A DNA stretch of 33,695 nucleotides. Source: Acidobacteriota bacterium. GTDB taxonomy: Bacteria > Acidobacteriota > Terriglobia > Terriglobales > Acidobacteriaceae. Under the pieces are notes generated by a model. That model did no database searches. It was not told the DNA's origin and saw only the letters and a list, made by a program, of their open reading frames with translations. The translations under genes were made by a program, and so were the position numbers. The DNA lies in assembly GCA_021810815.1 (NCBI GenBank), contig JAJZHR010000001.1, positions 1 through 33,695 on the forward strand. Reading direction: 5' to 3'. Shown piece by piece: positions 942 through 33,695 of the stretch. Positions within the stretch are counted from its first letter, which is position 1. The number at the start of each line of letters is the position of its first letter.

Positions 942-1157
942 GTGAACCCTTTCGTGGAGCTTGCTCTCACAGCGGTGACGCAATTGATCGTGGCGGCATT
1001 TGTCTACGGGCAACTGACGCAAAGGCAGAAGGACCAGGCCGGCTGGCTGAAGGCGCATGACGAAAAGCTCGCGATGCACAGCGATCGCTTGGTGAACCAC
1101 GAAGGGCGCATTGCGCACATCGAGGGGCGCAAGGGCGTTCCGTTTGGCGGCGGATAG
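942..1157 (+). CDS. Small membrane protein, putative holin or lysis accessory protein
   Basis: GTG start follows GGAGGA. The 71-aa product has one N-terminal TM helix (LALTAVTQLIVAAFVYG) and a charged helical tail. It lies immediately upstream of the endolysin. Confidence 0.5.
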   Translation: MNPFVELALTAVTQLIVAAFVYGQLTQRQKDQAGWLKAHDEKLAMHSDRLVNHEGRIAHIEGRKGVPFGGG

Positions 1158-1186
1158 CCGTAATCAGAGCACTGAGGGGCGAGGCG

Positions 1187-1579
1187 ATGAATGTTGACCT
1201 GGTGATGATGGCGTTGACGGCGTGGCGCGAGGCACGAGGCGAAGGTCCGCAGGGAATGCTGGCTGTGGCTTGGGTGATTGCGAACCGCGTGAAGGCGGGC
1301 ATCGAAGGGACGTGCGCGCTGGATGTGGTGACGGCGAAGTGGCAGTTCTCTTCGCTGACCGCGCCGGGCGATGCGATGTTGATCCAGTGGCCGCATTCGA
1401 GCGATCCGGCTTGGATCGAGGCTTGCTCGGCGGCGACGACAGCTATGAGCGGCTCATCGGCCGATCCGACAGGCGGAGCGACGGACTATGCGAATCTCGC
1501 GGTGTGCGATCCGGCGTGGGCGAAGGTCTACAAGCGTAGCGCGGTGATCGGGCACCACACGTTCTTCACGAGGATCTAG
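1187..1579 (+). CDS. Endolysin, SleB-type cell wall hydrolase (Hydrolase_2 family)
   Basis: Motifs ALTAWREARGEG, VAWVIANRV and KWQFSS are typical of SleB-like cell wall hydrolases. The product is 130 aa. Confidence 0.8.
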   Translation: MNVDLVMMALTAWREARGEGPQGMLAVAWVIANRVKAGIEGTCALDVVTAKWQFSSLTAPGDAMLIQWPHSSDPAWIEACSAATTAMSGSSADPTGGATDYANLAVCDPAWAKVYKRSAVIGHHTFFTRI

Positions 1580-7669: not shown

Positions 7670-8950
7670 ATGACGATGATCTACGCGAAAATGCTGCGAG
7701 AGAAGCTGGTGAGTCTGTCTCTGGACATGCGCGCCATTGTGGACAAGGCCAAGGGGGAGAACAACCGTGGTCTCACGTCCGAGGAAGCCGAGAAGTTCGA
7801 CAGATTAGAGGCCGACTATACGGCCACGGAAGCCAGCATCAAGCGGGCAGAGAAGGTGGACACAATCGAGGCCGATCTGGCCGCTCCGGATGCTAAGGAT
7901 CGCATCATCGCGCGCCTCGAAGACGATGGCAATGGCGAGAGCACCAAGGACAAAGCTCTCCACGCCAAGGCGTTCAGCGGATACCTGCGCGGCGGCATCG
8001 AGGCGCTTGACGCCGATCAGCGGCAGTTCATGGCTCGGCGATTCATCAAGAACGCTCAGAGCACCACAACCGGAAGCCAGGGCGGCTACCTCGTGCCCAC
8101 CGGCTTCAGCGACAAGCTCGAAGAGGCCCTGAAGTTCTTCGGCGGCATCGCCGGCGTCGTCGGCAGCTTCACGACGGCGACTGGGAACCCCTTCCCGTGG
8201 CCCACCCTGAACGACACGGCCAACGTCGGTGCCATCGTCGGCCAGAACACTCTGGTTGCAGAAACTGGTGAGACGTTCGGGCAGGTCAACTTCGGTTCCT
8301 ATATCTTCAGCTCGCAGGCTGTGCCGATCCCGCTCGCCCTGATCGAGGACTCCGCGTTCGACATCGATGCCATGCTCACCCGGCTGCTCGGAACCCGCCT
8401 GGCCCGCATCTGGAACACCAAGATGACGGTCGGCGTCGGCACCACAGAGCCGTATGGCATCGTCACGGCTGTTGTCGCATCGGGCAACACCGTGCAGGGA
8501 GCTGTCGGCGAAACCACCTCGATCATCTACAACGACCTGGTCAACCTGGAGCACGCCGTCGATCCGGCGTATCGCAACGGAGCGAAATACATGTTCCACG
8601 ATACGACGCTGAAGGTGCTCAAGCAGCTCAAGGATGCGTCCAACCGGCCTTTGTGGCAGCCCGGCCTCACTGCCGGATTCGCCACCGGAGCGCCCTCCAC
8701 CATCCTCAATCACGAGTTTGTCATCAACAACGACATGCCCGTGATGGCGGCCAGCGCGGCCAGCGTGCTCTTCGGAGACATGTCGAAGTATATGACCCGT
8801 CGCGTGGGCGAGGGAACCAGCGTCCTGCGGCTCACTGAGCGCTACGCCGATTACCTGCAGGTCGGCTACATCGCCTTCCTGCGGTCGGACGGCAACCTGC
8901 TCGACGCGGGCACCCACCCCATTGCTGCGTTCCTCAACTCCGCCACCTAA
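7670..8950 (+). CDS. Major capsid protein, HK97 family (with N-terminal delta/scaffold domain)
   Basis: 426 aa with a coiled-coil N-terminal region followed by GGYLVPTGFSDKL. It lies after the protease. An alternative ATG at 7676 is possible. Confidence 0.85.
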   Translation: MTMIYAKMLREKLVSLSLDMRAIVDKAKGENNRGLTSEEAEKFDRLEADYTATEASIKRAEKVDTIEADLAAPDAKDRIIARLEDDGNGESTKDKALHAKAFSGYLRGGIEALDADQRQFMARRFIKNAQSTTTGSQGGYLVPTGFSDKLEEALKFFGGIAGVVGSFTTATGNPFPWPTLNDTANVGAIVGQNTLVAETGETFGQVNFGSYIFSSQAVPIPLALIEDSAFDIDAMLTRLLGTRLARIWNTKMTVGVGTTEPYGIVTAVVASGNTVQGAVGETTSIIYNDLVNLEHAVDPAYRNGAKYMFHDTTLKVLKQLKDASNRPLWQPGLTAGFATGAPSTILNHEFVINNDMPVMAASAASVLFGDMSKYMTRRVGEGTSVLRLTERYADYLQVGYIAFLRSDGNLLDAGTHPIAAFLNSAT

Positions 8951-9254: not shown

Positions 9255-10085
9255 GTGGGACTGCGCACCCTCATCGAACCCGCGTCCGAGCCGGTATCGG
9301 CGGCCCAGTTGGCGCAGTTCCTCCGCGTCGATCAGAACGCCGACGCGGACATGATCGCCGCGCTCGGCCTCTCTGCGCGCCGCTGGTGCGAGGAATACAC
9401 CAAGCGCCGCTTCATCTCGCAGACCGTCCGCCTCACGCTCGACTTCTTCCCCGGCTTCATCGATTCGCGCATCACCGGGTCGAACTTCGCCACGCCGCTC
9501 ATCGGTGGTTCCACGGCTCTGCTCGCGGGCATTCGCTACGCGATCATCCTGCCCTTCCCGCCCGTCAGCTCCGTGGTCCAGCTCGCGTACATCGATGTTG
9601 AGGGCAATCCGCAGACCCTCAACCCTGCGACGCAATACGAGCAGGATCTCGTATCGCAGCCCGCGCGCCTCGCTCCCACCTTCGGCCAGGTGTGGCCAGT
9701 CGCTCGCGTCGTCACCAACGCAGTCACCGTCGATTTCGTCGCCGGATACGGTGGCAATGCGACCTTCTCGCTTGGCGTGGGCCCCGGAGCGGTCACATCC
9801 GGCTATACGTTCCTGCCCACCGACGTTGGCAGGCCGATCACCGTCGGCGCGGTGTCCACGACGGTCGCCACGGTCGATGCGGGCAGCAATGCCACCCTCG
9901 CGGCTCCGCTCACTGTGCCCTTCGTGAACGGCGCGGCCTATCTCGGCGCGCCTGTGCCGCCCAACATCTGCACCGCGATCCTCTTCCTCGCGCGCTACTG
10001 GTACGACCTGGGCAACGTCGAGGCCGCGAGCATTCCCGATGTCGTCCAATCGCTGCTTTCGCCCTACAGGGACCTGCGGATATGA
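9255..10085 (+). CDS. Head-tail connector protein, gp6-like N-terminal domain with a long C-terminal extension
   Basis: GTG start. N-terminal SAAQLAQFLRVDQNADADMIAALGLSARRWCEEYTKRRF matches the gp6-like (Phage_connect_1) pattern. At 276 aa it is about 2.5 times the usual size. Confidence 0.65.
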   Translation: MGLRTLIEPASEPVSAAQLAQFLRVDQNADADMIAALGLSARRWCEEYTKRRFISQTVRLTLDFFPGFIDSRITGSNFATPLIGGSTALLAGIRYAIILPFPPVSSVVQLAYIDVEGNPQTLNPATQYEQDLVSQPARLAPTFGQVWPVARVVTNAVTVDFVAGYGGNATFSLGVGPGAVTSGYTFLPTDVGRPITVGAVSTTVATVDAGSNATLAAPLTVPFVNGAAYLGAPVPPNICTAILFLARYWYDLGNVEAASIPDVVQSLLSPYRDLRI

Positions 10086-10432
10086 CAGCGAAGGGAGCCG
10101 GCATCGCCATCAACGCTTCGCGCCTGCGCCACCAGATCACCATCCAGCAGCAGACGGCCACCACCGACGCATCGGGAGCCGCGCTCGCATGGACGGTGCT
10201 GATGACGATATGGGCGGAGATCACCGTCCTGCGCGGCACCGACGCATGGCGCGGCGGCCAGTTCACCGCTCAGAAGTTCGCCCAGGTCACCATGCGCTAC
10301 CAGCCTGGCATCCTGCCGGACATGCGCGTGCTCTTCGGCAGCCGGATCTTCATCGTGCAGGATTGCGTCAACGTCGAAGAGCGGAATGTGCGCCTCGAAT
10401 TGCTCTGCGTCGAGCTTGACGGCCAGGCATAG
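10082..10432 (+). CDS. Head-tail adaptor / head closure protein (SPP1 gp16-like)
   Basis: ATGA overlap with the upstream stop. LRHQITIQQQ, WTVLMTIWAEI, RIFIVQDCVNVEERN and LELLCVE fit the Phage_H_T_join pattern. Confidence 0.75.
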   Translation: MTAKGAGIAINASRLRHQITIQQQTATTDASGAALAWTVLMTIWAEITVLRGTDAWRGGQFTAQKFAQVTMRYQPGILPDMRVLFGSRIFIVQDCVNVEERNVRLELLCVELDGQA

Positions 10433-10455: not shown

Positions 10456-10932
10456 ATGGGAGTCCAGGATGTCGAAATCGTAGGCCTCGAAGACCTCGAA
10501 CGCCGCATGACCGAGTTCGCGCCTCAATTCAACCGTGCCTGCATCCGCAGGGGCGTCGATGCTGGCGCTGCCGTGCTGGTCGGCGCCGCCAAGGGCTTCG
10601 CTCCCACGCTCAAGCCCCATACATCGACGAGCAAGCGGGAGCCAGGCGAGCTGCGCGACGCCATCGAGGCCATCCCTGATCCCGTCGATGCCAACAATCC
10701 CAGCCGCACCGGCAGCACCGTCTCGCCCACCTACACGAAGTCCGATGGCCCTGACTCGCCGGGCGTCTGGGGAAAATTCGTCGAATACGGAAGCGTCCAC
10801 AATCCCCAGCCGGAGCCGTTCCTGCGTCCCGCCATCGACGGCTCCGGCATGGAGGCCATCGATGTCTGCATCGCTGAGGTCGGCGCGGCCCTGGGCATGA
10901 TGGCGGAAGCACCCGCGCAGGAGGCCGCATGA
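10456..10932 (+). CDS. HK97 gp10-family neck / tail-completion protein
   Basis: FVEYGSVHNPQPEPFLRPAID is the typical HK97 gp10-like signature. AAGGAGG lies upstream. Confidence 0.7.
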   Translation: MGVQDVEIVGLEDLERRMTEFAPQFNRACIRRGVDAGAAVLVGAAKGFAPTLKPHTSTSKREPGELRDAIEAIPDPVDANNPSRTGSTVSPTYTKSDGPDSPGVWGKFVEYGSVHNPQPEPFLRPAIDGSGMEAIDVCIAEVGAALGMMAEAPAQEAA

Positions 10933-11327
10933 TCGAGGCTGGAATCGTCGCCCTCGCGCAGGCCGACGCCGGCGTCAAGGCGCTCTGCCCGGTCGGCGGC
11001 TTCTGCGCCACGCTGCCCAAGGGGGCGATCCTGCCGAGCTGGACCTATCTCGTCGTCTCGCGCGTGCCGGACTACACGCTCTCCGGCCGCAACAAGCTCA
11101 CCATGACGCGCCTGCAGATCGACTGCTTCGGCCAGTCGGCAGCCGATGCCATCAACCTATCCGAGGCCATCCGCGAAGTCCTCTCCGGCTATCAGGGAAC
11201 GCTCCCCGACGCCGACGCCACCGTGGTCCAGGCGGCGTTCCACACCGACACGGTTGACTTCTTCGACGATCTGGCGCGCACCAGCCGCCGCATGATCGAG
11301 TTCGAGATCCACTTCTCCCAGCCGTAA
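10929..11327 (+). CDS. Tail terminator / tail completion protein (DUF3168-like)
   Basis: 132 aa with ATGA overlap. Its position immediately upstream of the major tail gene and the TMTRLQIDCFG pattern support the call. Confidence 0.55.
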   Translation: MIEAGIVALAQADAGVKALCPVGGFCATLPKGAILPSWTYLVVSRVPDYTLSGRNKLTMTRLQIDCFGQSAADAINLSEAIREVLSGYQGTLPDADATVVQAAFHTDTVDFFDDLARTSRRMIEFEIHFSQP

Positions 11328-11385
11328 GGCTGCGATCCGATTTTATGCACCAACCATCTCAACCAATTCTCAAGGAGTCCAACCC

Positions 11386-11853
11386 ATGCCACTTCCCAGC
11401 ACCAACGTCACTCCCACCGCGGCCCAGGTAGGCTACGGCGCGGCATTCTCCGTCGGCACAGGCTTGCCGGGTGCTTATGTCTACACCCAGATCGCCGAAG
11501 TCAAAGACATCAAACCCAGCGGCTTCACCGTCGGCGAAGAGGACGTCACCACGCTCGGCTCGCCCAGCGCCACCCGCGAATTCGTTCCCACCCTGGTCGA
11601 GGGGGGCACCGTCGAGATCTCCGGCAACTACATCGCCGATACCACCCAGACGCAGCTCGAAACCCTCGCAAAAGCCCGCACCATCTTCCCGTTCCAGTTC
11701 GCGTTCCCGCTCTCCACCAGCAAGAACGTCACTCGCAGCGGCCTCTGCTTCATCACCAAGCTCGCCCCCGGAGCGGACATCGTCGCAGACAAGGCTCCGG
11801 CCTTCAACTGCACGATGCGCATCACCGGCGTCGAGACCGAGGTCATCGCCTAA
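11386..11853 (+). CDS. Major tail (tube) protein
   Basis: 155 aa, between the tail terminator and the chaperones. EVKDIKPSGFTVGEEDVTTLGS and FVPTLVEGGTVEISGNY resemble TP901-1/lambda V-type tube proteins. Confidence 0.7.
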   Translation: MPLPSTNVTPTAAQVGYGAAFSVGTGLPGAYVYTQIAEVKDIKPSGFTVGEEDVTTLGSPSATREFVPTLVEGGTVEISGNYIADTTQTQLETLAKARTIFPFQFAFPLSTSKNVTRSGLCFITKLAPGADIVADKAPAFNCTMRITGVETEVIA

Positions 11854-11930
11854 AACGTAAATCGAGACATAACCCAACCGCGAGCAACAACCAGCCTGCG
11901 CCCGAAACGAAGAAAATCGAAAGGAGCACC

Positions 11931-12203
11931 ATGCCAGAGAATCCAGTCGTCCGCGCCAAGTTCACCGTCACCCACCACGAAGTTCTCCACTACCAGAGCG
12001 GCGATCCGCACGTCACCGTACACCTGCAGCCCCGCTGCGAATCGTCCATCCCGGAGGACAAGCGCTTCGCGGCAGCCACGCCCAGCGGCGAACTCAAGAT
12101 GTACATCACCAACAAGAGCGCCATCGAGCACCTCAAGCCGGGAAGGGCCTTCTACCTCGACTTCATCCCGGTGCCGGAAGGCGTCTCCCCGTACCACAGC
12201 TAG
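11931..12203 (+). CDS. Hypothetical small tail-module protein
   Basis: 90-aa ORF with AAAGGAG upstream and a coding-like composition. No family was recognised. Confidence 0.5.
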   Translation: MPENPVVRAKFTVTHHEVLHYQSGDPHVTVHLQPRCESSIPEDKRFAAATPSGELKMYITNKSAIEHLKPGRAFYLDFIPVPEGVSPYHS

Positions 12204-12273
12204 ATGTGCCAACGCGGGTCCGGGTGAGCATTCCCAGACCCGCAGCACTTCTCATCACCTGGAAAGGACCGCC

Positions 12274-12666
12274 ATGAAGAAGCCAGCCGCCAAAGAATTT
12301 GATCGTCTTGAGGCAACCGAGATGCTCGCCAAAGCCGCCAAGATCACTGTCGAGGGCCGCGAATACAAACTTGTCATCACCAATGGCTGCCTGATCGAGT
12401 TCGAGCAGCTCACCGGGATCAGCACCATTACCGAGAGCGAGAAAATCCTTCGCAACCCATCGCGCCACGCGCTCATCGCGATGTTCTATGTGCTGCTGAA
12501 GAACGCGGGCGCGAGCTACCTGCAAAGCGAGGTCGAGCAGCTCGTGACCGCGAAGAACCTGCCTCGCGTCTTCGAGACCATCGCGGCCGCATGGTCTCTA
12601 TCCATGGCTCAGGAGGAGGAGCGGAATGACCCTATCGTGCCCGCGACAGCGATCAAGCCGCGCTGA
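12274..12666 (+). CDS. Tail assembly chaperone (gpG / GTA g10-like)
   Basis: 130 aa, upstream of the tape measure gene. ITVEGREYKLVITNGCLIEFEQLTG resembles GTA-type chaperones. Confidence 0.65.
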   Translation: MKKPAAKEFDRLEATEMLAKAAKITVEGREYKLVITNGCLIEFEQLTGISTITESEKILRNPSRHALIAMFYVLLKNAGASYLQSEVEQLVTAKNLPRVFETIAAAWSLSMAQEEERNDPIVPATAIKPR

Positions 12667-12695
12667 CGTGGGTCAATCTGTGGGCGGCGGCGCGA

Positions 12696-13004
12696 GTGCA
12701 TGTAGGCCTTGCGTGGGAAGAGTGGATAGGAATGACGCCCGGCATGTGCTCCGAGCTGGAGCGATGCGTGCGGATGCGTTTCCGCCGCGAGGAAGCCATC
12801 GCGGGTGTCCTCGCCAGCGCCATCGCCAACTTCTCAGCGCATCCTCCCAAGAATCCTCTGGGGCCGAGCGATTTCTTCGCATCCATCGCCCCTCCGGAGC
12901 GCGAAGAAAAGCGCATGACCGGAGAGCAGATGCTGGCCGTCTTTGACCGCTGCGTCGGCGTGGAAAAGGCAGCGGGAAGACTGACAGTGACGGGTATGGT
13001 GTAA
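12696..13004 (+). CDS. Second tail chaperone ORF (gpT / GTA g10.1-like); may be made as a -1 frameshift fusion
   Basis: This ORF is in the -1 frame relative to 12274..12666. Its frame is open from 12630, giving a 37-nt overlap with the chaperone. LTWVNLWAAARVHVGLAWEEWIGMTPGMCSEL resembles the W..L..lGL.p.eFW.mTP.EL pattern of GTA g10.1-like proteins and begins upstream of the first GTG at 12696. Confidence 0.55.
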   Translation: MHVGLAWEEWIGMTPGMCSELERCVRMRFRREEAIAGVLASAIANFSAHPPKNPLGPSDFFASIAPPEREEKRMTGEQMLAVFDRCVGVEKAAGRLTVTGMV

Positions 13005-13014
13005 TCTGGCGGGC

Positions 13015-13632
13015 ATGGACGGCGGATCGATTGCAGTGATGGTTGTTCTTGTCCTGATCGCTTTGGCGCTGCTGGCGGCTCTCGTCAGGTCGGCTGGCGA
13101 GAGAGGTCAGCGGAATGCGGAGCGGTTCAATGATCGGGTGCCATTTTATGTCGCTCCGCGCCCGGATACTCCGCCCCCACCAGCGCATGAGCCGCTGCTC
13201 AGGCTGGCGGACCTCTGGCAGTTTCGCGCTGCCGGCATCGCGTATGAAAGTCGCAACGGGAACGTCTCGCGGAGTTCGATTGCGCGCGAGCTGAAGCCCG
13301 GCATGAGTCTTCGCCTGCGGCGGGAGCCGCAGAACGAGTTCGACCCCGATGCCATCGCCATCTATCCAGTGGAGCTGGAGGGCGGTGCCGACCTGGACAT
13401 GGCTTTCGTCCCCAAGGCCGTCGCCGCTCTCATCGCCCCGCTGATGGACCGCTATGCGGTGATGGAAGCGCATGTGATGAAGGTGGTGCTCAACGGCCCG
13501 CACGACCATTTCGTGCACGTCTACGTCGAGGTGCGCATGACCGCGCCGCCAGAGCCGCTGCCGCCGAAGCCGCCCAGGGTGAGGCGGAAAAAACTCGCAG
13601 CGGACGAAACGCGGAAAGAGGTCGAAGCATGA
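13015..13632 (+). CDS. Membrane-anchored HIRAN-domain protein (moron)
   Basis: N-terminal TM IAVMVVLVLIALALLAALV is followed by Arg residues, so the C-terminus is predicted cytoplasmic. AAGIAYESRNG, LKPGMSLRLRREPQNEFDPDAIAI and FVPKAVAALIAPLMD fit the HIRAN pattern. The tail is Pro/Lys-rich. Confidence 0.65.
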   Translation: MDGGSIAVMVVLVLIALALLAALVRSAGERGQRNAERFNDRVPFYVAPRPDTPPPPAHEPLLRLADLWQFRAAGIAYESRNGNVSRSSIARELKPGMSLRLRREPQNEFDPDAIAIYPVELEGGADLDMAFVPKAVAALIAPLMDRYAVMEAHVMKVVLNGPHDHFVHVYVEVRMTAPPEPLPPKPPRVRRKKLAADETRKEVEA

Positions 13633-14297
13633 ATAAGCGGTGGTGGTTGATCGGGATCGGCGTTGCCTTGGCCGGTGTTGGCCTCTATGTCGCAGCGGAA
13701 AGCGCGAAGGAGACGCAGACTAGGGCTGGCGAGGCGAGTGTGGCTTTCCGCGCGGAGCAGGAGCGGACGAACGCCGAACTGGACGTGACAAACGATAAGT
13801 TGGAAGAGGACATCGAGCGGGACGGAAGGCAGATGGGCGAAGAGTACGGCCCTGCGGCGCGCTGGATTGTCAGTGAGCAGAAAGACGAGTTGCGGGGCAA
13901 GGTCGAGAGCCTTTCGCTTGATGGCGGCGCGCTCGTCGTGCATTGCCTGCCTGTTTTCGCGGGAGAGTTGAAACCGCCTTTCCGAATGGCTGCCAGTCAG
14001 GCCGACGGGGAGGAGGTGCGCTATAGGATCGACAATGGAAAGATTCAGCTTGCGACATTGGCTGTATCGGGCGACGCCAGCGCGCTCATTGTTCCCGAGG
14101 CCATGCTGAAAGTGTTCGCGCAATCGAAGAAGGCGGTCCTGGAGTACGAGCCGGTAGGGCAGCAAGAGGTTTTGGACCTGACCGGACTTGGCCAGGCAGA
14201 GCGCGAAGCTGGCTGTCCGCAGGCCCCGCAAGTAGCCAAGGCGAAGCCGAGAATGACGGATGATGGAAGAGTGATAAGCGATTTCAATTTGCGCTGA
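13629..14297 (+). CDS. Membrane-anchored protein with coiled coil and an unknown C-terminal domain (moron partner)
   Basis: ATGA overlap with the HIRAN gene. MNKRWWLIGIGVALAGVGLYVAA has KR before the TM, so the C-terminus is predicted periplasmic. It continues with an acidic coiled coil and a beta-rich region. 222 aa, no family recognised. Confidence 0.55.
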   Translation: MNKRWWLIGIGVALAGVGLYVAAESAKETQTRAGEASVAFRAEQERTNAELDVTNDKLEEDIERDGRQMGEEYGPAARWIVSEQKDELRGKVESLSLDGGALVVHCLPVFAGELKPPFRMAASQADGEEVRYRIDNGKIQLATLAVSGDASALIVPEAMLKVFAQSKKAVLEYEPVGQQEVLDLTGLGQAEREAGCPQAPQVAKAKPRMTDDGRVISDFNLR

Positions 14298-14326
14298 TGC
14301 GAAGCTGAGTGCTGGATGTGAATCAG

Positions 14327-14356
14327 AGCCGCCCAACCGGGCGGCTTTTGTGTTTT
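14327..14356 (+). terminator. Rho-independent terminator
   Basis: 8-bp GC-rich stem agccgccc/gggcggct with loop aacc, followed by ttttgtgtttt. It lies 30 nt after the 14297 stop and 17 nt before the tape measure start. Confidence 0.8.
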
Positions 14357-14372
14357 CAAAAGGAGCAAGATC

Positions 14373-16979
14373 ATGGGCGGAAGCAAGCGGGTAGGCTCGG
14401 CGCACATCGAATTCAGCGCGCGCACAGCCAAGGTCATCTCCGGCATGGAAGAGGCCAAGGTCGCGACGCGCAAAGCCGCGCTGCAGATGAAATCCGACAT
14501 CCATGAGGCGCAGGGTTCGATCGCCGTGTTGGGTGAGGAGATTGGTGTGCATCTGCCGCGCCACGTCCAGCGTTTCGTGGCTGCGATTCCCGGCATCGCG
14601 CCCGCGCTCTCGGCCGCATTCAGCGCAGTCGCCATCATCTCGATCGGAAAAGCCATCTTCGAGGTCGGAGACAAAATCTACGACACCTTCCAGAAGGCAA
14701 AAGAGGCGCAGGCGAAGGCTGCCGAAGCAAGCTCGGCCTTCCAGCAGCAGCAGCACCTGTCGAATATGGAGCTGGCGGTCGCCAACGACAGGATCGCTTC
14801 TGCCATTGCCAAGCTGGAGAGGAAGCCGGTCAATGGCCTGAAGATGGCCATCGACGAAGCACTGCTCGAACTGGAAAAGTTCGGCAGGGAGATGGACAAA
14901 ACCTTCGCCGAAATGCGCGGCCAGATCAAGGAAATGCAGGCCCCGTGGTACCAGAGGGTCACCGGCACCCAGGGCAACGGCGCTGTGCTGAAGCAGGCCG
15001 ACGACTACAAGGCCGCGCTCGATGACATCAACAGGCAAGAAGAGCGCTCCATCGCGCTCGCCAGAACGCAGGCGGAGGTCGAGGCCGTCCGCAACCGGGC
15101 GATGCAGCAACGGGTCGATGCGGCTGCGAAGGCCAAAAAAGAAATCGGCGATGAAATCTCGCTGCTTCAGCAGCTCAACTCCCTCAAGGGCGCAGGGGCA
15201 GACATGGGCGATGCAACGCTGGCCCAGAATGCGCAATACCAGAACGTTCTTATCGATCTCCACCAGAAGATGGGGCCCAGCGCAAGGCTCGACCGCAACC
15301 AGGCGAGCGTCCAGCAGGGAATGCAGGTTCTATACAACGAAATCGGCAATCAGGAGCAAGGTTTTAGCGAGCGGCAGCAGAATCGAGCGCTTGAAAATCG
15401 CAAGCAGCAGGACGAAGATGCCAAGGCGATGCTGTCTCAGAAAAAGCAGGAGGCGGCTGAGGCGAAGCGCGCCCAGCAGGAGGCGGATCGACAGCAGATG
15501 GATGGATTCCGGCAGCGCCTGGAAGCGATGCGTGCTCGCGGGATGCAGAGCGTGCAGGCGGAGCACCTCTTCTGGCTGACGATGCAGGCCACGACGCGGC
15601 GCGGATCGAAGAATTGGGAGGCGACGCAGGCTCTGGCGCAAGCGGCGCAGGCCGAGTTCATGAAGTCGCTTGCCGCGCAGGACAAAGCAATGGCCGCCGA
15701 GAAAGCCAAAGCCGACGCCGGTGCCGCCAAAGTCTCCGTCATGTTCGCGGCGGAGAACGCCAAGGCGGCCGCCGAGCAGATCAGCGATGCGCAGAAGCTC
15801 CAGCAGATCCATCAGGGAACCATCGACAAGCTGGCCGAGCTGCAGATCGGCTACCAGAGGACGATGGGCACGATCAGCGACTATGTTGCGGAGCAGCGCC
15901 TGGCCGCCATCGCCGAGCGCGGGAACCGCGACGCCATGGCGGACATCGACGCGCAGCTCAGGCGCGTGCGCGCGGATGGCACCCGCGCCGTCGAGGAGCA
16001 GCGCAAGGAGATCGCCAAGTACGAGCAGGAGAAAGCCGCGCTGCAGGGCAGGATCGACATCGAGAAGATGAACACCCGGATCGCCAACTCTGAGGATTCG
16101 CTGCTCGGCGGCGTGCAGCAGCAGATGGCGCAGATGGTGGCCCAGGGGCTGGACACGGCCGAGCAGCTCCGCGAAATGTTCACCTCTGTCATCGGCGGAG
16201 CCAACGAGGAGATGGCGAAGGCCATCACCGGCCAGCGGACGAGCTGGAGCAAGATGGCCGCTGGCCTCGCCAATCAGGGAGCGACCAAGGTGCTCCAGAC
16301 CGGCGAGGCCGGAATCATGAAGCTCCTGCTGGGGCATGGAGCGAAGGGCAAGCGTGGCGAGAGCCGAGACAATCCGATGTATGTCAGTGAAGTCGCCTCG
16401 GCCGCCGGTGCGGCGCAAAGGGGAGCTGGCGGCCTGCTGGGCAAGCTGATGGGACATTTCGGCCTTGGCGGCGCGGCTGGACCCGCAGCTCAGCCTGCAG
16501 GCGGCTCGCAGGGAGGCGGTGCGGGGCCCATGGGCAGCTTGATGAGCGATTTCGGCCTTGGCGGCATGCAGCCGGCCGGCGGATCGCAGGATGGCATGGG
16601 CGGCCTGATGAATGGGATGTTCGGAGCCGTGACAGGGAATTCCGGCGGCAACTGGTGGAGCAATCTCGCCAGCATGTTCGTCCCCCACGCATCGGGCGGC
16701 CCCGTGTCCGCCAACACCGCCTATCTGGTGGGCGAGGGCGGCGGCCATCCGGAGGCTTTCTTCCCCGGCGTCAGCGGCACCATGGCCACCCATCATGCGC
16801 TGATGAGCGCCGTCGGCAATCGCGGCGGCAACCAGGTCCACTACCACATCGACGCGCGCGGCACCGACGCAGCCCAGGTCGAGATGCGCGTCCATCACGC
16901 CATCCGCGCGGCGCACCAGGACGCGATCCACAAAGCCGTGAAAGCGGTCCACGAAATCCACCGACGCACCGCCCACTGA
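14373..16979 (+). CDS. Tail tape measure protein
   Basis: 868 aa with AAGGAG upstream. Long Ala/Gln/Glu coiled-coil regions, a Gly/Met-rich segment and a C-terminal AYLVGEGGGHPEAFFPG motif are typical of tape measure proteins. Confidence 0.85.
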   Translation: MGGSKRVGSAHIEFSARTAKVISGMEEAKVATRKAALQMKSDIHEAQGSIAVLGEEIGVHLPRHVQRFVAAIPGIAPALSAAFSAVAIISIGKAIFEVGDKIYDTFQKAKEAQAKAAEASSAFQQQQHLSNMELAVANDRIASAIAKLERKPVNGLKMAIDEALLELEKFGREMDKTFAEMRGQIKEMQAPWYQRVTGTQGNGAVLKQADDYKAALDDINRQEERSIALARTQAEVEAVRNRAMQQRVDAAAKAKKEIGDEISLLQQLNSLKGAGADMGDATLAQNAQYQNVLIDLHQKMGPSARLDRNQASVQQGMQVLYNEIGNQEQGFSERQQNRALENRKQQDEDAKAMLSQKKQEAAEAKRAQQEADRQQMDGFRQRLEAMRARGMQSVQAEHLFWLTMQATTRRGSKNWEATQALAQAAQAEFMKSLAAQDKAMAAEKAKADAGAAKVSVMFAAENAKAAAEQISDAQKLQQIHQGTIDKLAELQIGYQRTMGTISDYVAEQRLAAIAERGNRDAMADIDAQLRRVRADGTRAVEEQRKEIAKYEQEKAALQGRIDIEKMNTRIANSEDSLLGGVQQQMAQMVAQGLDTAEQLREMFTSVIGGANEEMAKAITGQRTSWSKMAAGLANQGATKVLQTGEAGIMKLLLGHGAKGKRGESRDNPMYVSEVASAAGAAQRGAGGLLGKLMGHFGLGGAAGPAAQPAGGSQGGGAGPMGSLMSDFGLGGMQPAGGSQDGMGGLMNGMFGAVTGNSGGNWWSNLASMFVPHASGGPVSANTAYLVGEGGGHPEAFFPGVSGTMATHHALMSAVGNRGGNQVHYHIDARGTDAAQVEMRVHHAIRAAHQDAIHKAVKAVHEIHRRTAH

Positions 16980-17020
16980 CACTCTCGCCTCTTCCCATCG
17001 CACCCGAAAGGAAAAACACC

Positions 17021-20000
17021 ATGCCCCGGCTAATCGCTGCCGCCGTGACGCGCTGCGTCGCGCTCGCCATTCTTTGCTTCGTCGCTCTGCTATTCGTCTT
17101 GCTGCTGGTCTGCATCCCCGCGTACGCCCAGCACACCACGATTCTCGGCAACGAGTTCCAGGACCTCAGCGGAACGCTGATGCAGCAGGGATATCTCTGC
17201 CTCGCGCCGGTGAACGCCAACGGGCAGAGCACTGGGTTCGCGCTCACCGGCGTCGGCCAGGTCAACTCCGCCCAGCACTGCTATTCCATCGTCAACGGCT
17301 CCATAGGCACAGCCGACCAGGTCGCCGACACCTCGATGAGCACCCCTGCCGTGAAGTACGTCGTCACCATCAGCGGCGTCACGCACCAGGTTCTCTACCA
17401 GTATCCGCAGCCTATCTCGATCACAGGAGCGTCGTTCAGCTTCGACGCCTACACGCCGCCCGTCGTCGTCGCGCAGCCGCTCGGCAACATCGTCACCTAC
17501 GACTCGGGTCCGCCGGCCGCTCCCTGCGCCTTTCCCGCGATCTACATCCAGTCGAACGCTACCACTGGCAACGTGTGGGCCTGCATCGGCACCACCTGGG
17601 TGCAGCAGCTCACCAATAACGCCGCGCTGCCGCTCGCTGGAGGCAACATGACCGGGCCCATAGTCCTCGCGGCTGATCCCACCAGCGCCTTGCAGGCGGC
17701 AACCAAGCAGTATGTGGACGCCAACAGCGGCACCGGAGCTGTCAAGTTTACTCCCACAGTCGCGCAGAATGTATCGCAGCCCGGCAGCACCACGCTCGGC
17801 GTCAACTCGCTGAACGCTGTGCTCCACGCGATCTACTACCAGTCGCCGGCTGGAACCGGGAACAACGGCATCGCCAACGCCTTCGCCTCGGCCGCTTGCG
17901 CCAGCGGATGCACGGTGGTTGCCGACCCCGATTATTCGAATGTGGAGTTGGCGACCTATCCGACCATCGCAGGACAACACCTGATTGATCTGCGGCAGGG
18001 TGAGAACACGCACTATCTGACAAACCCTCTTTACAGTCACTCCGGCTGCGGCGTCACATCAGGACCAGCAGCGCAGGACACAGGCCTGAACGCAGAGGAG
18101 CACTGCTACCTCATCAATGCTCTGAACGCGCGGCAGTACGGAGCAGTGAACTACGTCAAGTTCGCAGGCTTGGGTGATAGCAACGGAAACAATGCTACGA
18201 CGGCGGGTAATTGGTGGGCTGCGCGGGGCTTCCAGTTTATTACCGAGTGCTGGACGGAAGGCATTTGCGATGGCACGGATATCTTCCTGAACAAGTACAG
18301 CGTCGGTGATGCGAATGGCTTCAACGTCAACGTCTGGGCCGCTGGCGGAGCGAAAGCTGTCTCCGATGAGGGAATCAAGGGCGAGACGTTTGTAGTCGGA
18401 GAACTTACTGCGTACCCTCACGCGACGATTGCAACAGGAGCAAGCTCAGGCTCTACTTTCCTTACGACAACCACACCATCAGGCGACACGCACTTCATCC
18501 CCGGCGCATATCTGGTAGACATCACGCAGGGCGGTACTTCCGGCGGAGTGGTGGCGACGGCAGTAAATGGCTTTGGTGGACCGAACTATACAGTCACTGG
18601 AGCGACTGTGCCGGTATCGACAGCATGGGGAACGCTAAGCGCGGCTTGCAATGGTCCCGGGAGCATGGCTCAGTACGCAAGTGTGAGTTGCTCGGTCACA
18701 GTAACTTCCGGCACATTCGTTGCGGGCGGAGTCTGCCTCGGCGGAGGGCCATTCTATGAGTATGCTTCACTGACCTCGCCGAGCACTCTTAGCGGAGGCC
18801 TTCAGACCTTCACGATCTCGATCCGAAATGCCTATAACACTGGCGCCGCGATGATGCAGGGAGGATTGTGTGGCCAAGGGTTGACGGATGCGAATGATAC
18901 AGGATGGCGGACGACGTACCCTATCCTTGGCGCAACTGCAAATAACACAATTGTCTTCTTCGATGCCAATCGATCAGCGGATAGTATCTCGATGGAGACG
19001 CTTCCCGTGGGCACCACGCTCGCGCTCTATCCGATGGCTGAGATCATCGGCACCGGCGGCGGCGTGGCCAACACGGTGAACCTTGCGACGAACAACGTCA
19101 ATTTCACAGCAAACGATGCTGTCGAGAACCCTCACCTTTCTGCTGTCAATCTAGCTGGCGTGAACACAACTATGACTCAGGTTTCGCGGTCGAACAATTC
19201 TGGATCATATATGTGGCAGACAACCTTCAACTGCGTCAAGACCTATAGCTGTAGCAATGCTACTATGTGGAATTTGTTGGTTACTGGCCAGTCAACGCCT
19301 TACACTTTCATGAATTTCTCATCATATATTCCGATATGGTTCTATTCTAATGTGGCGATGCCGCAGAGCTACATTGATGTCCACAACTCCCCTGATCCTG
19401 GAAGAGACGTACCTTTATTTAATCTTCCATACAACACCAAGTTGCTTTATAACACTGGCGGCGGACTTGAAGACACGTCAGCATTTACAGTCGATGACGT
19501 GCTCGCTGTTGCTTTTGGGAGCAATCTAGGCGGCACGACGAATATTACAGGCACGATGAATGCCTCCGGCACTAATAACATCTCCGGCACTAATAACATC
19601 TCCGGCACGACAGGCATCACGGGCAACTCCGGCACGCCTGTAAGCCTTCATGGAGCCGTGAACGAGACATCGCAGCCGAGTCTCCAGTCGCCACCGCCTG
19701 TGCTCACTTTGACGAATGTTTACACCGGAGCGGCGGGAGCATTCGCACACAGCTACTCTATAGCGGGTGTGACTGCGTCTGGCCAGACAACCCTGAACTG
19801 GCAGTCGAATAACAACTACATTCAGCCAAATTCGTCTGCAGGGAACACCATCGAAACGCTCGATGCTGCTGACTATGTGACGATCACATGCCCAACCTCA
19901 GCGCAGATGCCCGGCTTCACGTCAGCGAATGTTTTTTTGGTCACTGCGGCAGGCAGTCTGCCGCACTACCTTGGCAACTGCCCGTTTGGTGATACGTTTG

Positions 20001-20677
20001 TCGATAACTTTTCCGACAGCCAGAACCAGACCACAGGCGGCGTCAGCACGGGTTATTCGGTTCCCTTTGTCGGCGGCACAGTTGACCTGGATCGCCGCTA
20101 CGGCAAAGGCATCGGGTGGTACGATCTGGCGAATGCCAGCAGCAGCCAGACCACTCCAGACACGCACCTGAGCAGCCCCGCAGTCGGCACTGTCAGCGTG
20201 GACGGCAGCACGGTTGGCGACGGCCAAGGAACACTGATCGCCAAGACGGCAACGCTGGCCAGTGGAACTGTGGGCGGCTCGGCGATCTGTACGGCGGCAG
20301 GTGGGGCTACTTGCCCTAGCGCTCCTGTCACGTCCGTCTTTGGTCGCACCGGGCCAGTCGTAGCTGCGGTTGGCGACTACTCAGTAGCGCAGGTGACTGG
20401 GGCAGCCGCAGCGAGTGCATTGCCTCTACGCGGGACAAGTGCAGCCTTCGCCCCAGGAGCACTTGCTGCCGGTGCCTGTGCCATTCAAACAGCCACTGCT
20501 ATCGCAGGTGCAAAAACTACGATGGTGGCTCGTGTGTCGCCTGTATCTGACCCTGGAGCGGGTCTCGTATGGCAGGAGGTTTTGACTGACGGAAACGTCG
20601 CTGTGCGCCTCTGCAACGCCACGGCAGCCTCCATCACGCCAGCCAGCACAGCCTACAACATCGCGGTGATTCAGTAG
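17021..20677 (+). CDS. Large tail fibre / receptor-binding protein with a signal-peptide-like N-terminus
   Basis: 1218 aa from ATG 17021. The fibre motifs LPLAGGNMTGPIVLAADPTSALQAATKQYVD and VTSVFGRTGPVVAAVGDYS are present. The N-terminus is MPRLIAAAVTRCVALAILCFVALLFVLLLVCIPAYA-Q. Confidence 0.7.
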   Translation: MPRLIAAAVTRCVALAILCFVALLFVLLLVCIPAYAQHTTILGNEFQDLSGTLMQQGYLCLAPVNANGQSTGFALTGVGQVNSAQHCYSIVNGSIGTADQVADTSMSTPAVKYVVTISGVTHQVLYQYPQPISITGASFSFDAYTPPVVVAQPLGNIVTYDSGPPAAPCAFPAIYIQSNATTGNVWACIGTTWVQQLTNNAALPLAGGNMTGPIVLAADPTSALQAATKQYVDANSGTGAVKFTPTVAQNVSQPGSTTLGVNSLNAVLHAIYYQSPAGTGNNGIANAFASAACASGCTVVADPDYSNVELATYPTIAGQHLIDLRQGENTHYLTNPLYSHSGCGVTSGPAAQDTGLNAEEHCYLINALNARQYGAVNYVKFAGLGDSNGNNATTAGNWWAARGFQFITECWTEGICDGTDIFLNKYSVGDANGFNVNVWAAGGAKAVSDEGIKGETFVVGELTAYPHATIATGASSGSTFLTTTTPSGDTHFIPGAYLVDITQGGTSGGVVATAVNGFGGPNYTVTGATVPVSTAWGTLSAACNGPGSMAQYASVSCSVTVTSGTFVAGGVCLGGGPFYEYASLTSPSTLSGGLQTFTISIRNAYNTGAAMMQGGLCGQGLTDANDTGWRTTYPILGATANNTIVFFDANRSADSISMETLPVGTTLALYPMAEIIGTGGGVANTVNLATNNVNFTANDAVENPHLSAVNLAGVNTTMTQVSRSNNSGSYMWQTTFNCVKTYSCSNATMWNLLVTGQSTPYTFMNFSSYIPIWFYSNVAMPQSYIDVHNSPDPGRDVPLFNLPYNTKLLYNTGGGLEDTSAFTVDDVLAVAFGSNLGGTTNITGTMNASGTNNISGTNNISGTTGITGNSGTPVSLHGAVNETSQPSLQSPPPVLTLTNVYTGAAGAFAHSYSIAGVTASGQTTLNWQSNNNYIQPNSSAGNTIETLDAADYVTITCPTSAQMPGFTSANVFLVTAAGSLPHYLGNCPFGDTFVDNFSDSQNQTTGGVSTGYSVPFVGGTVDLDRRYGKGIGWYDLANASSSQTTPDTHLSSPAVGTVSVDGSTVGDGQGTLIAKTATLASGTVGGSAICTAAGGATCPSAPVTSVFGRTGPVVAAVGDYSVAQVTGAAAASALPLRGTSAAFAPGALAAGACAIQTATAIAGAKTTMVARVSPVSDPGAGLVWQEVLTDGNVAVRLCNATAASITPASTAYNIAVIQ
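19532..19639 (+). repeat. Six tandem 18-bp units encoding the hexapeptide G-T-x-N-I/A-T/S; two units are identical
   Basis: ggcactaataacatctcc is repeated exactly at 19568..19585 and 19586..19603. Degenerate units flank it (GTTNIT, GTMNAS, GTNNIS, GTNNIS, GTTGIT, GNSGTP). Confidence 0.85.
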
Positions 20678-25343: not shown

Positions 25344-26528
25344 TCAGCAATTGGCCAGCATCTCTCTTTCGCCGATGCGCACTGATCCCGAGGGCTTCTT
25401 TCCTGGCTCGATGGCGAGCACAGCCTCGTATTTAACGCGGGTGCGCTGATGGGCGTAGTACTCCATCATCCGGCGGCCGACGTGCCCGGCGATGGCCTGC
25501 ACCGTCTCCGGATTCACATCGTTCTCCAGCAGCCGAGTGATGCAGTGGTGGCGCAGATCGTGGGGATTCAGGCCGGGCGTTCCAGTGGCGCGGCGGAGCT
25601 TCGTCCAGCTATCGCGCAGAAACCAGCGCGACGGCGGGAGGGAAGGGTCGTAGAGGTTGCGCTTGATGCGAAACGGGAACAGGTGGTGGTCTGGCTCGCA
25701 TGCCCCCAGGCGTAGCGCGCGGCTGTAGCACTGCTGCACAGCCCACTTCGCCGTTGGGTTCAGGGCGATCTTGCGCGGCCGCGAATTGTTTTTCACGGAG
25801 TCTTCAGGAATATAAATTTCAGGGATGTTTGCGTGGAGGAAGATGTGCTTCAGCCTCAGCCCTCGCAGCTCGATGCCGGCGGCCGTCGTGTTGTTCGTGA
25901 TCGCGGCCACGCAATAGGCGAGATGCGCCTCTGGGTGGCGCGCCGCCGCCTTCCAAAACCTCTCCTCGTCGGCCTCCGTGAGGATCTGGCGCGGGCTCCA
26001 GCTCCGCATGGGCAGCGGGAAATAATACGGCTTGATCGGGTGCCATAGACGGCAATGCGCCAGCATTCGGCAGAGCGTTCCCAGTTCGTGGTTGATCGTG
26101 GAATGTCCGGCATGCCGCTTCCAGGGCGTCGTCTCGCCATCTTCGCACTGGACCAGGTTGTGCAGGCGGGCGACCTGGTAGGCGCGCAGATGGCCTGCCG
26201 TGATCTCGCGCATTCCGAGGCCAGCAAAGAAACGGTCAAGCGCGATCAAGTAGCCGCGCGTCGTCTCGTGCGTGCGCAGACGCAAGGCTGTGGACTGCGC
26301 GCGCCGCTCCATCCAGAGCGCGGCAGCGTCCGTGAAGAGCATCGATGCCATATCGGCGGTACCACAGTGCAGCGAGTCATTGGCTGCCGAGCAGGCAGGG
26401 CACGCGATGTGATTGGGGGAATGCTGCAGGGTAGGATCCGGCGCAAACGCGCCTTTGTCGGCATAGAACTGTGGGAGGTGCATGATCCCGCTTTCGTGAG
26501 CATCGGCAGCGTAGGAGATTCCCGGCAT
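25344..26528 (-). CDS. int: Tyrosine integrase (phage integrase family)
   Basis: TAAGIELRGLRLKHI (Arg I), HDLRHHCITRL (HxxR) and GHVGRRMMEYYAH (catalytic Tyr). The start is uncertain: internal Met codons at 26483 and 26351 are alternatives. Confidence 0.85.
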   Translation of the reverse strand: MPGISYAADAHESGIMHLPQFYADKGAFAPDPTLQHSPNHIACPACSAANDSLHCGTADMASMLFTDAAALWMERRAQSTALRLRTHETTRGYLIALDRFFAGLGMREITAGHLRAYQVARLHNLVQCEDGETTPWKRHAGHSTINHELGTLCRMLAHCRLWHPIKPYYFPLPMRSWSPRQILTEADEERFWKAAARHPEAHLAYCVAAITNNTTAAGIELRGLRLKHIFLHANIPEIYIPEDSVKNNSRPRKIALNPTAKWAVQQCYSRALRLGACEPDHHLFPFRIKRNLYDPSLPPSRWFLRDSWTKLRRATGTPGLNPHDLRHHCITRLLENDVNPETVQAIAGHVGRRMMEYYAHQRTRVKYEAVLAIEPGKKPSGSVRIGEREMLANC

Positions 26529-33340: not shown

Positions 33341-33695
33341 AGTTCGCGCTCACTGAACAGGATGCGAAGATGATGCGCGACATGGGCCTCCGTGTCAGGA
33401 GGCTTCGTCGAGAGCGGGGGATGTCGATCACGGAGCTGGCTGATGCTTCCCGCGTGAGCAGATTCAACCTCTACCATGTGGAACGTGGGAGCAGCAATTG
33501 CGGTGTTGTGATCGCAGCGAGGCTGGCAACCGGCCTTGGCGTGGGGATGGAGCTGCTCTTCGATGGAGAAACAAGCGAATTTGAATGTGCAAGGAAATCA
33601 ACACGGCGAAAAAAATCGCCGGGTGTTGTGGCGCGCAGGGCGGCTCGGGAATCTGAGAGCGGCAATCGCATCAATGCCCTGCTGGCATTGGCTGA
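33337..33695 (+). CDS. XRE/Cro-CI-family HTH transcriptional regulator (3' end runs off the window and continues at 5..161 if circular)
   Basis: Not in the supplied track because it has no stop in the window. LRRERGMSITELADASRVSRFNLYHVERGSSNCGVVIAARLATGLGVGMELLF is a classic HTH_XRE pattern. Confidence 0.75.
   Translation, partial: MKFALTEQDAKMMRDMGLRVRRLRRERGMSITELADASRVSRFNLYHVERGSSNCGVVIAARLATGLGVGMELLFDGETSEFECARKSTRRKKSPGVVARRAARESESGNRINALLALA
33570..33695 (+). repeat. Terminal direct repeat, right copy (126 bp)
   Basis: Identical to 5..130 and ends exactly at the window end. Confidence 0.95.

Follow-up and report, generated by a model that had tools for sequence, protein, structure and literature searches.

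What are two genes for membrane-directed proteins doing between the tail chaperone and tape-measure genes of a phage? We addressed this question in contig JAJZHR010000001.1 of an Acidobacteriota bacterium (assembly GCA_021810815.1), a stretch of 33,695 nucleotides that we call the window. Its gene 1 (13015..13632, + strand) is an open reading frame (ORF) of 205 codons for a single-pass membrane protein with a HIRAN domain, and its gene 2 (13629..14297, + strand) is an ORF of 222 codons for a protein with a transmembrane (TM) or signal segment, a long acidic helix and a beta-sandwich. We read this gene pair as an acquired accessory cassette, or moron, whose products would span the membrane and probably act against incoming DNA, and we give this reading a probability of roughly one half. 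A preliminary description of the window had listed sequence features at this locus that we found in place without exception; the exclusion or DNA-entry-blocking function that it proposed for the pair is something that we, too, can only infer.

The chaperone/tape-measure junction and its gene pair

The window is a circular assembly in which positions 5-130 are repeated at 33570-33695 (126/130 bases), giving a complete genome of ~33,565 bp. The phage is a temperate, HK97-type siphophage. Its head and tail genes follow in the order TerL, portal, ClpP-type protease, HK97-fold capsid, head-tail adaptors, major tail protein, chaperones, gene 1 and gene 2, tape measure and distal tail. The temperate call is based on a tyrosine integrase identified by the Pfam scan at 25344-26528 on the opposite (-) strand, the sole gene in the window that is off the + strand.

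The placement of the pair between the tail chaperones and the tape measure, as first described, is borne out by Pfam and PHROG matches on both flanks. Upstream, a G-like tail assembly chaperone (12274..12666, + strand) is placed between the major tail protein and the tape measure and matches phrog_2115 'tail protein' at 3.2e-7 and Pfam Phage_TAC_11 at 0.0073, below the cut-off. Its end is overlapped in the -1 frame by a T-like frame (12630..13004, + strand), which is open from 12630, has its first start codon at 12696 and matches Phage_tail_T at 4.2e-5, with 24.3 bits lying just under the cut-off of 25.9. The G/T overlap (12630-12666) is arranged in the -1 frame as expected, yet neither a canonical XXXYYYZ slippery heptamer nor a homopolymer run of at least 4 bases occurs in it. 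Only 10 nucleotides separate the T stop from the start of gene 1. We could read the proposed ATGA stop/start overlap of gene 1 and gene 2 at 13629..13632 (+ strand), and a GAGG Shine-Dalgarno sequence lies 7 nucleotides upstream of the gene 2 ATG; judged by their sequence, the two genes are translationally coupled. Downstream follows the tape measure protein of 868 amino acids (14373..16979, + strand), which matches Tape_meas_lam_C at 8.1e-5 (at the cut-off) and phrog_1538 'tail length tape measure protein' at 5.5e-6 and whose gene has a strong AAGGAG ribosome-binding site. Scans of Rfam and NCBIfam gave no match in the gene-pair region.

The earlier statement that this junction is normally empty holds for two distant prophage relatives (L009 and L010, capsid ~36% identical), in which the chaperone is followed directly by the tape measure. 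It does not extend to HK97, where the same junction holds gene 15, the first moron, whose product is an inner-membrane protein for superinfection exclusion (PMC3594210). In the closest relative (L006, head genes 54-61% identical) an unrelated phrog_5 gene and no HIRAN gene follows the T frame, on a contig that stops before the tape measure. Comparison of synteny, which the preliminary description had suggested as a check, shows that none of these three relatives shares the pair at the chaperone/tape-measure junction. The phrog_5 gene of L006 (12173-12742, 7.7e-16) is tail-completion/Neck1-like and stands behind the T frame, not upstream of the major tail gene; its counterpart in the window (10456-10932) is in the usual place.

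Codon usage also sets the pair apart. The codon adaptation index (CAI) is 0.595 for gene 1 and 0.523 for gene 2, the lowest of the 21 structural-block genes, and their GC content at third codon positions (GC3; 0.756 and 0.712) is among the lowest of the same genes, most of which lie at roughly 0.79-0.92. The low CAI and GC3 suggest a foreign origin of the pair. Its overall GC content is not distinct from that of its neighbours.

A moron is supported by the temperate lifestyle of the phage, the slot known from HK97 gene 15, the empty junction in L009 and L010 and the atypical codons. Additionally, both products are membrane or exported proteins, which is unusual for proteins of a tail module. 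The pair would then be horizontally acquired cargo in the chaperone/tape-measure slot and not a set of tail-assembly genes. Like the pair, HK97 gene 15 occupies this slot in an HK97-type temperate siphophage, encodes a membrane-inserted product and is absent from relatives (PMC3594210). It differs in that gp15 (YebO-like) is one small protein without a DNA-binding domain, whereas the pair encodes two proteins, one with HIRAN, and in that it has a documented promoter and prophage expression, whereas the promoter of the pair is doubtful. We found no homology to gp15/YebO, as a Pfam scan at E up to 1 shows no YebO-type family. The slot is precedented and the content of the cassette is new, and the junction would be a reusable cargo slot beyond the enterobacterial lambdoid phages.

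Two proteins of opposite predicted membrane topology

The HIRAN pattern noticed earlier in gene 1, which contains the strings GIAYE, LRLRREPQNEFDPDAIAI and FVPKAVAALIAPLMD, scores above the gathering cut-off of Pfam PF08797 (E = 5.8e-9, 36.1 bits against 24.7, residues 82-155). We place the domain at residues ~70-176 (13222..13542, + strand), the range matched by the PADLOC PDC-M03B models at 2e-7 in their HIRAN part only (profile positions 130-226 of 245). Four PHROG families of unknown function also match here, again in their HIRAN part. A word-indexed search of 5.8 billion proteins for full-length homologues of gene 1 returned only the query itself. In annotated phage genomes we found only weak HIRAN-domain matches, the best tblastn matches including proteins annotated as HIRAN. 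A phmmer match between a BMC-H shell protein and the linker of gene 1 covered 33 residues and was spurious.

Aligned with human HLTF's HIRAN domain (a sequence identical to PDB chains 2mzn, 4s0n and 4xzf), gene 1 retains G69, Y72, R87, P89, N91, D94, A97, I98, K113 and F142 in HLTF numbering and has F at the position of Y93. The signature G-x-x-Y ... R-[ED]-P-x-N-x-[YF]-D-x-[ND]-A-I ... K ... F is shared by gene 1, HLTF and phage HIRAN proteins. We defined the 3′-end pocket of HLTF as Y72, N91, Y93, D94, K113 and F142, with R71 and Y73 in addition, a set drawn in part from the literature (PMC8262856). In gene 1, Y72, N91, D94, K113 and F142 of this set are kept and Y93 is F, and the pocket is largely retained. 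This residue pattern is compatible with DNA-end binding and no proof of it. HLTF/Rad5 and the standalone phage HIRAN proteins carry the same signature residues but are soluble, and the phage proteins are of ~100 amino acids and come from DNA-metabolism or accessory regions. None of the other HIRAN proteins that we inspected has a membrane anchor.

The anchor of gene 1 (residues ~6-24; 13030..13086, + strand) reaches a maximum of 3.35 in Kyte-Doolittle hydropathy over 19 residues (KD19), and its AlphaFold2 (AF2) model has a helix at residues 3-38, with a predicted local distance difference test score (pLDDT) of 87-94 over residues 1-20. The residues MDGGS stand ahead of the 19-residue hydrophobic helix and five Arg follow within 17 residues behind it, which by the positive-inside rule predicts an N-out/C-in protein with a cytoplasmic HIRAN domain. 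Residues 1-69 consist of the TM segment and a Pro-rich linker, and the C-terminal tail is Pro-rich and basic.

The opposite topologies that the preliminary description had assigned to the two proteins were recovered, with gene 2 predicted to be N-in/C-out because KR precedes its hydrophobic segment (residues 5-23; 13641..13697, + strand; KD19 1.87) and an acidic helix follows it. Evidence for gene 2 is strong, since it comes from 25 family representatives with signals, TM segments, lipoboxes and two cysteines. These relatives were found by an exhaustive phmmer search of 1.84 billion cluster representatives at E values of 4e-15 to 9e-5. Twenty-three are proteins of ~80-360 amino acids that share a common region at residues ~75-200 of gene 2, and the remaining two, very long proteins, match in several short stretches. 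In the alignment of gene 2 with the 23 relatives, C106 and C196 are near-invariant. Most of the aligned relatives start with a signal peptide, a TM segment or a lipobox, and a few are N-terminally truncated. The signals and lipoboxes across the family mark the gene 2 domain as exported, and the two near-invariant cysteines suggest that it is probably disulfide-bonded (C106-C196).

An acidic coiled coil and a beta-rich domain had also been described, and an acidic helix and a beta domain are present in the AF2 model of gene 2, which was built from the 24-sequence alignment and has a mean pLDDT of 84.5. The model shows one helix at residues 4-70 (TM segment and acidic stalk) and then a beta-sandwich (residues ~75-200; 13851..14228, + strand; the region common to 23 of the 25 representatives), across which pLDDT exceeds 90. 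The domain has no Pfam family, with a Pfam scan at E up to 1 giving only sub-threshold matches to the unrelated DMAC1_Dmo2 and DUF4307, and it is related to phrog_1848, a family of unknown function. Foldseek against the PDB found no match at E <= 0.001 for the model, the best being CBM56 at 3e-3 with TM-scores <= 0.40. All of its matches in BFVD were uncharacterised phage proteins of alike architecture, from Klebsiella phage KP15 and Escherichia phage RB16, at ~1e-5. The gene 2 family profile matched no PDB sequence and yielded only 3 further members in a profile search. The word-indexed search described above returned only the query for full-length gene 2, and among annotated phage genomes gene 2 had no match. 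Scans of IMG/VR with gene 1, gene 2, the tape measure and the gene 2 family profile gave nothing useful, and a metagenome scan gave only four short contigs.

Where do the relatives of gene 2 reside? One lies inside an sdh operon (L012), and another beside a glutamyl-tRNA synthetase-like gene that we identified by eye from its translation (L038). We observed others alongside series of small ORFs that look phage-like (L013), at 3 kb distance from an integrase (L034 and L035), and in an island with ParE and an antitoxin, Abi_alpha, DUF2971 and an insertion sequence element (L036). In this island (8001-8837 and 9726-10277) the family member is accompanied by what appears by eye to be a divergent tandem paralogue, within a secreted-protein cluster. 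At another locus (L019 315-680/674-1234; L020 is the same locus) a translationally coupled family lipoprotein stands in an ATGA-type overlap behind a 121-amino-acid protein with two TM segments. This arrangement of a membrane protein and then a gene 2 family member echoes that of the window. We dropped one candidate for a second gene 2 relative beside a tape measure (L018), for which TMP_N reached only E = 0.046 and BLASTP was non-significant.

These contexts bear on the possibility that the pair is lysogenic-conversion cargo with an envelope function unrelated to exclusion, for example at the cell surface or in stress, and that its HIRAN domain does not serve against foreign DNA. The ordinary chromosomal surroundings in L012 and L038, the secreted-protein cluster of L036, and the carbohydrate-binding CBM56 proteins as best, non-significant PDB matches would all suit such a role, as would the diverse functions of morons (PMC3594210). 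However, HIRAN has so far been tied to DNA ends (PMC8262856), its tight coupling to an anchor points to DNA at the membrane, and no enzymatic or transport domain is present in the pair. We consider an envelope function of this kind unlikely.

Terminator, promoter and the expression of the pair

The preliminary description had the pair closed by a terminator of its own. The hairpin and T-run are real: an intrinsic terminator at 14325..14356 (+ strand) has a stem at 14325-14348 with 10 pairs, 7 of them G-C, and a loop of 4, followed by the T-run TTTTGTGTTTTC. It starts 28 nucleotides past the gene 2 stop and ends 16 nucleotides before the tape-measure ATG, and its centroid hairpin has a free energy of -19 kcal/mol. 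It is the strongest such site in the window and the sole one on either strand with a stem of at least 8 pairs. We found at least one comparable terminator-like site in ~20% of shuffled 33.7-kb strands, so that chance placement of one in the 75-nucleotide gap between gene 2 and the tape measure is very unlikely. The terminator that a moron is expected to carry is thus present as a hairpin and T-run at 14325-14356, closing the cassette, which supports the cassette reading along with the position of the lysis cassette elsewhere. It need not belong to the pair, however. With the tape measure and every distal tail gene downstream of it, transcription has to pass the hairpin in lytic growth, and it could equally be an attenuator of the late operon; a moron terminator that antitermination bypasses and a simple attenuator would both fit the structure.

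A necessarily leaky terminator, the placement of the pair in the tail module and its close packing there could also indicate tail-assembly or virion/ejection components specific to this phage, with the terminator merely lowering expression of the tape measure and distal tail genes. The gene after the tape measure likewise encodes a hydrophobic N-terminus. Against this, both proteins carry signal or anchor sequences that target them to the producing cell's membrane or through it, members of the gene 2 family are lipoproteins and secreted proteins that often lie outside phages, neither protein matches a structurally annotated PHROG, and relatives do without the pair. Such a structural role appears very unlikely.

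A weak extended -10 had been noted just upstream of gene 1. The motif TGGTGTAAT is indeed there at 12997..13005 (+ strand) as a candidate promoter and is the sole such motif on the + strand, where 1.8 are expected per strand. It fared less well in other respects. It lacks -11A, the A that is conserved as second base of the -10 hexamer, and has no usable -35, the nearest -35-like sequence being a CTGACA only 13 nucleotides upstream. It lies inside the T reading frame and would yield a leaderless mRNA, and a consensus promoter scan found no + strand promoter in the region upstream of gene 1.

A pair inside a late structural operon with no clear promoter of its own, on a genome in which the integrase alone is off the + strand, could instead be a late helper of the phage's own cycle. 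Gene 1 would tether or shield the 3′ ends of phage DNA at the membrane during replication, packaging or protection from exonucleases, with gene 2 as its envelope partner. Such a helper would resemble p16.7 of phage phi29, a membrane-anchored DNA-binding protein. Standalone phage HIRAN proteins do occur in DNA-metabolism regions, as for gp253 of phage G between gyrB and gyrA, and the HIRAN gene of DLP4 lies in a replication module (PMC6469090). However, one would look for a replication helper among the early genes rather than ahead of the tape measure, relatives manage without the pair, its codon usage marks it as foreign, and its exported partner has no obvious role in replication. We regard a helper function as rather unlikely.

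Several points weigh against an acquired cassette directed at DNA. Besides the read-through that the terminator demands and the shortcomings of the promoter described above, the gene pair was not found together elsewhere, and the neighbours of the gene 2 family are heterogeneous, none of them with HIRAN and some in ordinary chromosomal contexts (L012, L038). Among known defence and exclusion families in PADLOC-DB, gene 2 had no match and gene 1 matched only the HIRAN-containing PDC-M03B. Two residues of the HLTF pocket are lost in gene 1, R71 being A and Y73 being E. The single-sequence AF2 model of gene 1 has a mean pLDDT of 52.4 and gave no Foldseek match in the PDB at E <= 0.001; we discarded its matches to ribosomal proteins as noise from too poor a model. 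The relatives that are informative here are distant ones, with 36-60% identity. The pair is also known from one clonal 33.6-kb temperate phage only. All 16 of 16 contigs with this phage are 99.97-100% identical where they overlap 11301-17100, showing no presence/absence polymorphism, and exact-protein look-ups with gene 1, the chaperone and the major tail protein gave the same clone and no cassette-free variant.

A possible role at the membrane and known systems

If the pair is indeed an acquired cassette directed at incoming DNA, its two products would form a complex across the cytoplasmic membrane. Outside the membrane, gene 2 would hold up a beta-sandwich with a disulfide bond on its helical stalk, and gene 1 would hold a domain able to bind DNA 3′ ends just inside it. 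The pair would be expressed in the lysogen and would shield the phage-carrying cell from foreign DNA where DNA crosses the membrane, as superinfection exclusion or defence. A defence-type role is supported by the largely kept pocket residues, by HIRAN domains in other prophage conflict systems (PDC-M03/HipIN, phiCDKH02; see below) and by the location of some gene 2 relatives in mobile or defence-type islands (L034/L035, L036). A more specific version, which we find possible but doubtful, is a membrane-spanning guard of DNA entry. Here the beta-sandwich would recognise or dock a superinfecting phage by its tail tip, tape measure or DNA conduit as these arrive, and the HIRAN domain would capture the free 3′ end of the entering linear genome, stalling its entry or circularisation.

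Membrane-level systems with a related logic are known. Ltp-type lipoproteins of temperate Streptococcus phages sit at the outer face of the cytoplasmic membrane and stop DNA injection (PMC3952083). They resemble the pair in being prophage-encoded and at the outer face of the membrane, where many gene 2 family members would also be placed as lipoproteins or signal-anchored proteins. They differ in being encoded in the lysogeny module, in having no cytoplasmic partner and in their unrelated fold, which consists of helix-turn-helix-like repeats and not of the beta-sandwich of gene 2. In the Kiwa system, a membrane component (KwaA) senses infection at the envelope and an inner-face partner (KwaB) binds ejected phage DNA (PMC11785009). 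This is the same working logic as in the model proposed for the pair, but KwaA is a multi-pass protein, KwaB has DUF4868 instead of HIRAN, and Kiwa is chromosomal or island-borne rather than part of a tail operon. A PADLOC scan found no match of either protein to Kiwa components.

HIRAN domains themselves recur in conflict systems. PDC-M03 is composed of a HipA-family kinase and a HIRAN protein (PMC13245101), and it has been suggested that HIRAN in HipIN-type modules is a sensor for the DNA ends of invading phages (PMC8262856). We observed a PDC-M03/HipIN-like arrangement in Clostridioides phage phiCDKH02 (L031 1726-3315), where HipA-domain and HIRAN-domain genes lie side by side and adjoin the integrase. 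These systems have the HIRAN domain in common with gene 1 and occur on prophages. [quoted passage not shown] We found no HipA-family kinase among the window ORFs scanned against Pfam or the called genes with precomputed Pfam hits. Membership of the pair in PDC-M03 was rejected, as only the HIRAN domain is shared.

To our knowledge, what HIRAN domains do in prokaryotes has until now been a matter of guesswork, and this for HipA-type modules. If the pair blocks incoming DNA, it would be a mechanistically distinct addition to the few exclusion and defence systems that act on genome entry at the membrane (HK97 gp15, Ltp, Kiwa), and it would give a membrane-tethered HIRAN domain a bacterial or phage role. 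As a guard of DNA entry it would be the first case of such a domain at the core of an exclusion or defence system, and it would provide a first function for the small uncharacterised family of exported beta-sandwiches to which gene 2 belongs. If it has no such role, the pair is one more orphan moron.

A lysis function can be set aside. Gene 2 has the TM segment and helix of an i-spanin but ends in a beta-sandwich, gene 1 is an N-out/C-in protein with a cytoplasmic HIRAN domain and without a lipobox, and the lysis cassette lies ~12 kb off; we therefore rejected a reading of the pair as spanins. The endolysin (Hydrolase_2, SleB-type) is encoded at 1187-1579, ~12 kb from the pair, and directly upstream of it is a small protein of 71 amino acids (942-1157) with an N-terminal TM segment and a helical tail. 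In the few ORFs translated around the lysis region (window 942-1579) we saw no candidate for a lipoprotein o-spanin. The genome has no detected tRNA genes and also encodes a ParB-like protein.

Two further genes of the tail module are unusual. Directly after the tape measure, at 17021-20677, lies the gene for a protein of 1218 amino acids whose N-terminus is strongly hydrophobic and signal-like (KD19 3.38). Pfam gave no match to it, and its codons are atypical (GC3 0.666, CAI 0.55), resembling a swapped host-recognition module. Between the major tail protein and the chaperone, a gene of 90 codons (11931-12203) matches only the C-terminal end of phrog_6978 (8.6e-10). In the closest relative, L006, the same place holds an unrelated membrane protein of 104 amino acids (11136-11450), and the position between major tail protein and chaperone may be another slot of the tail module with variable cargo.

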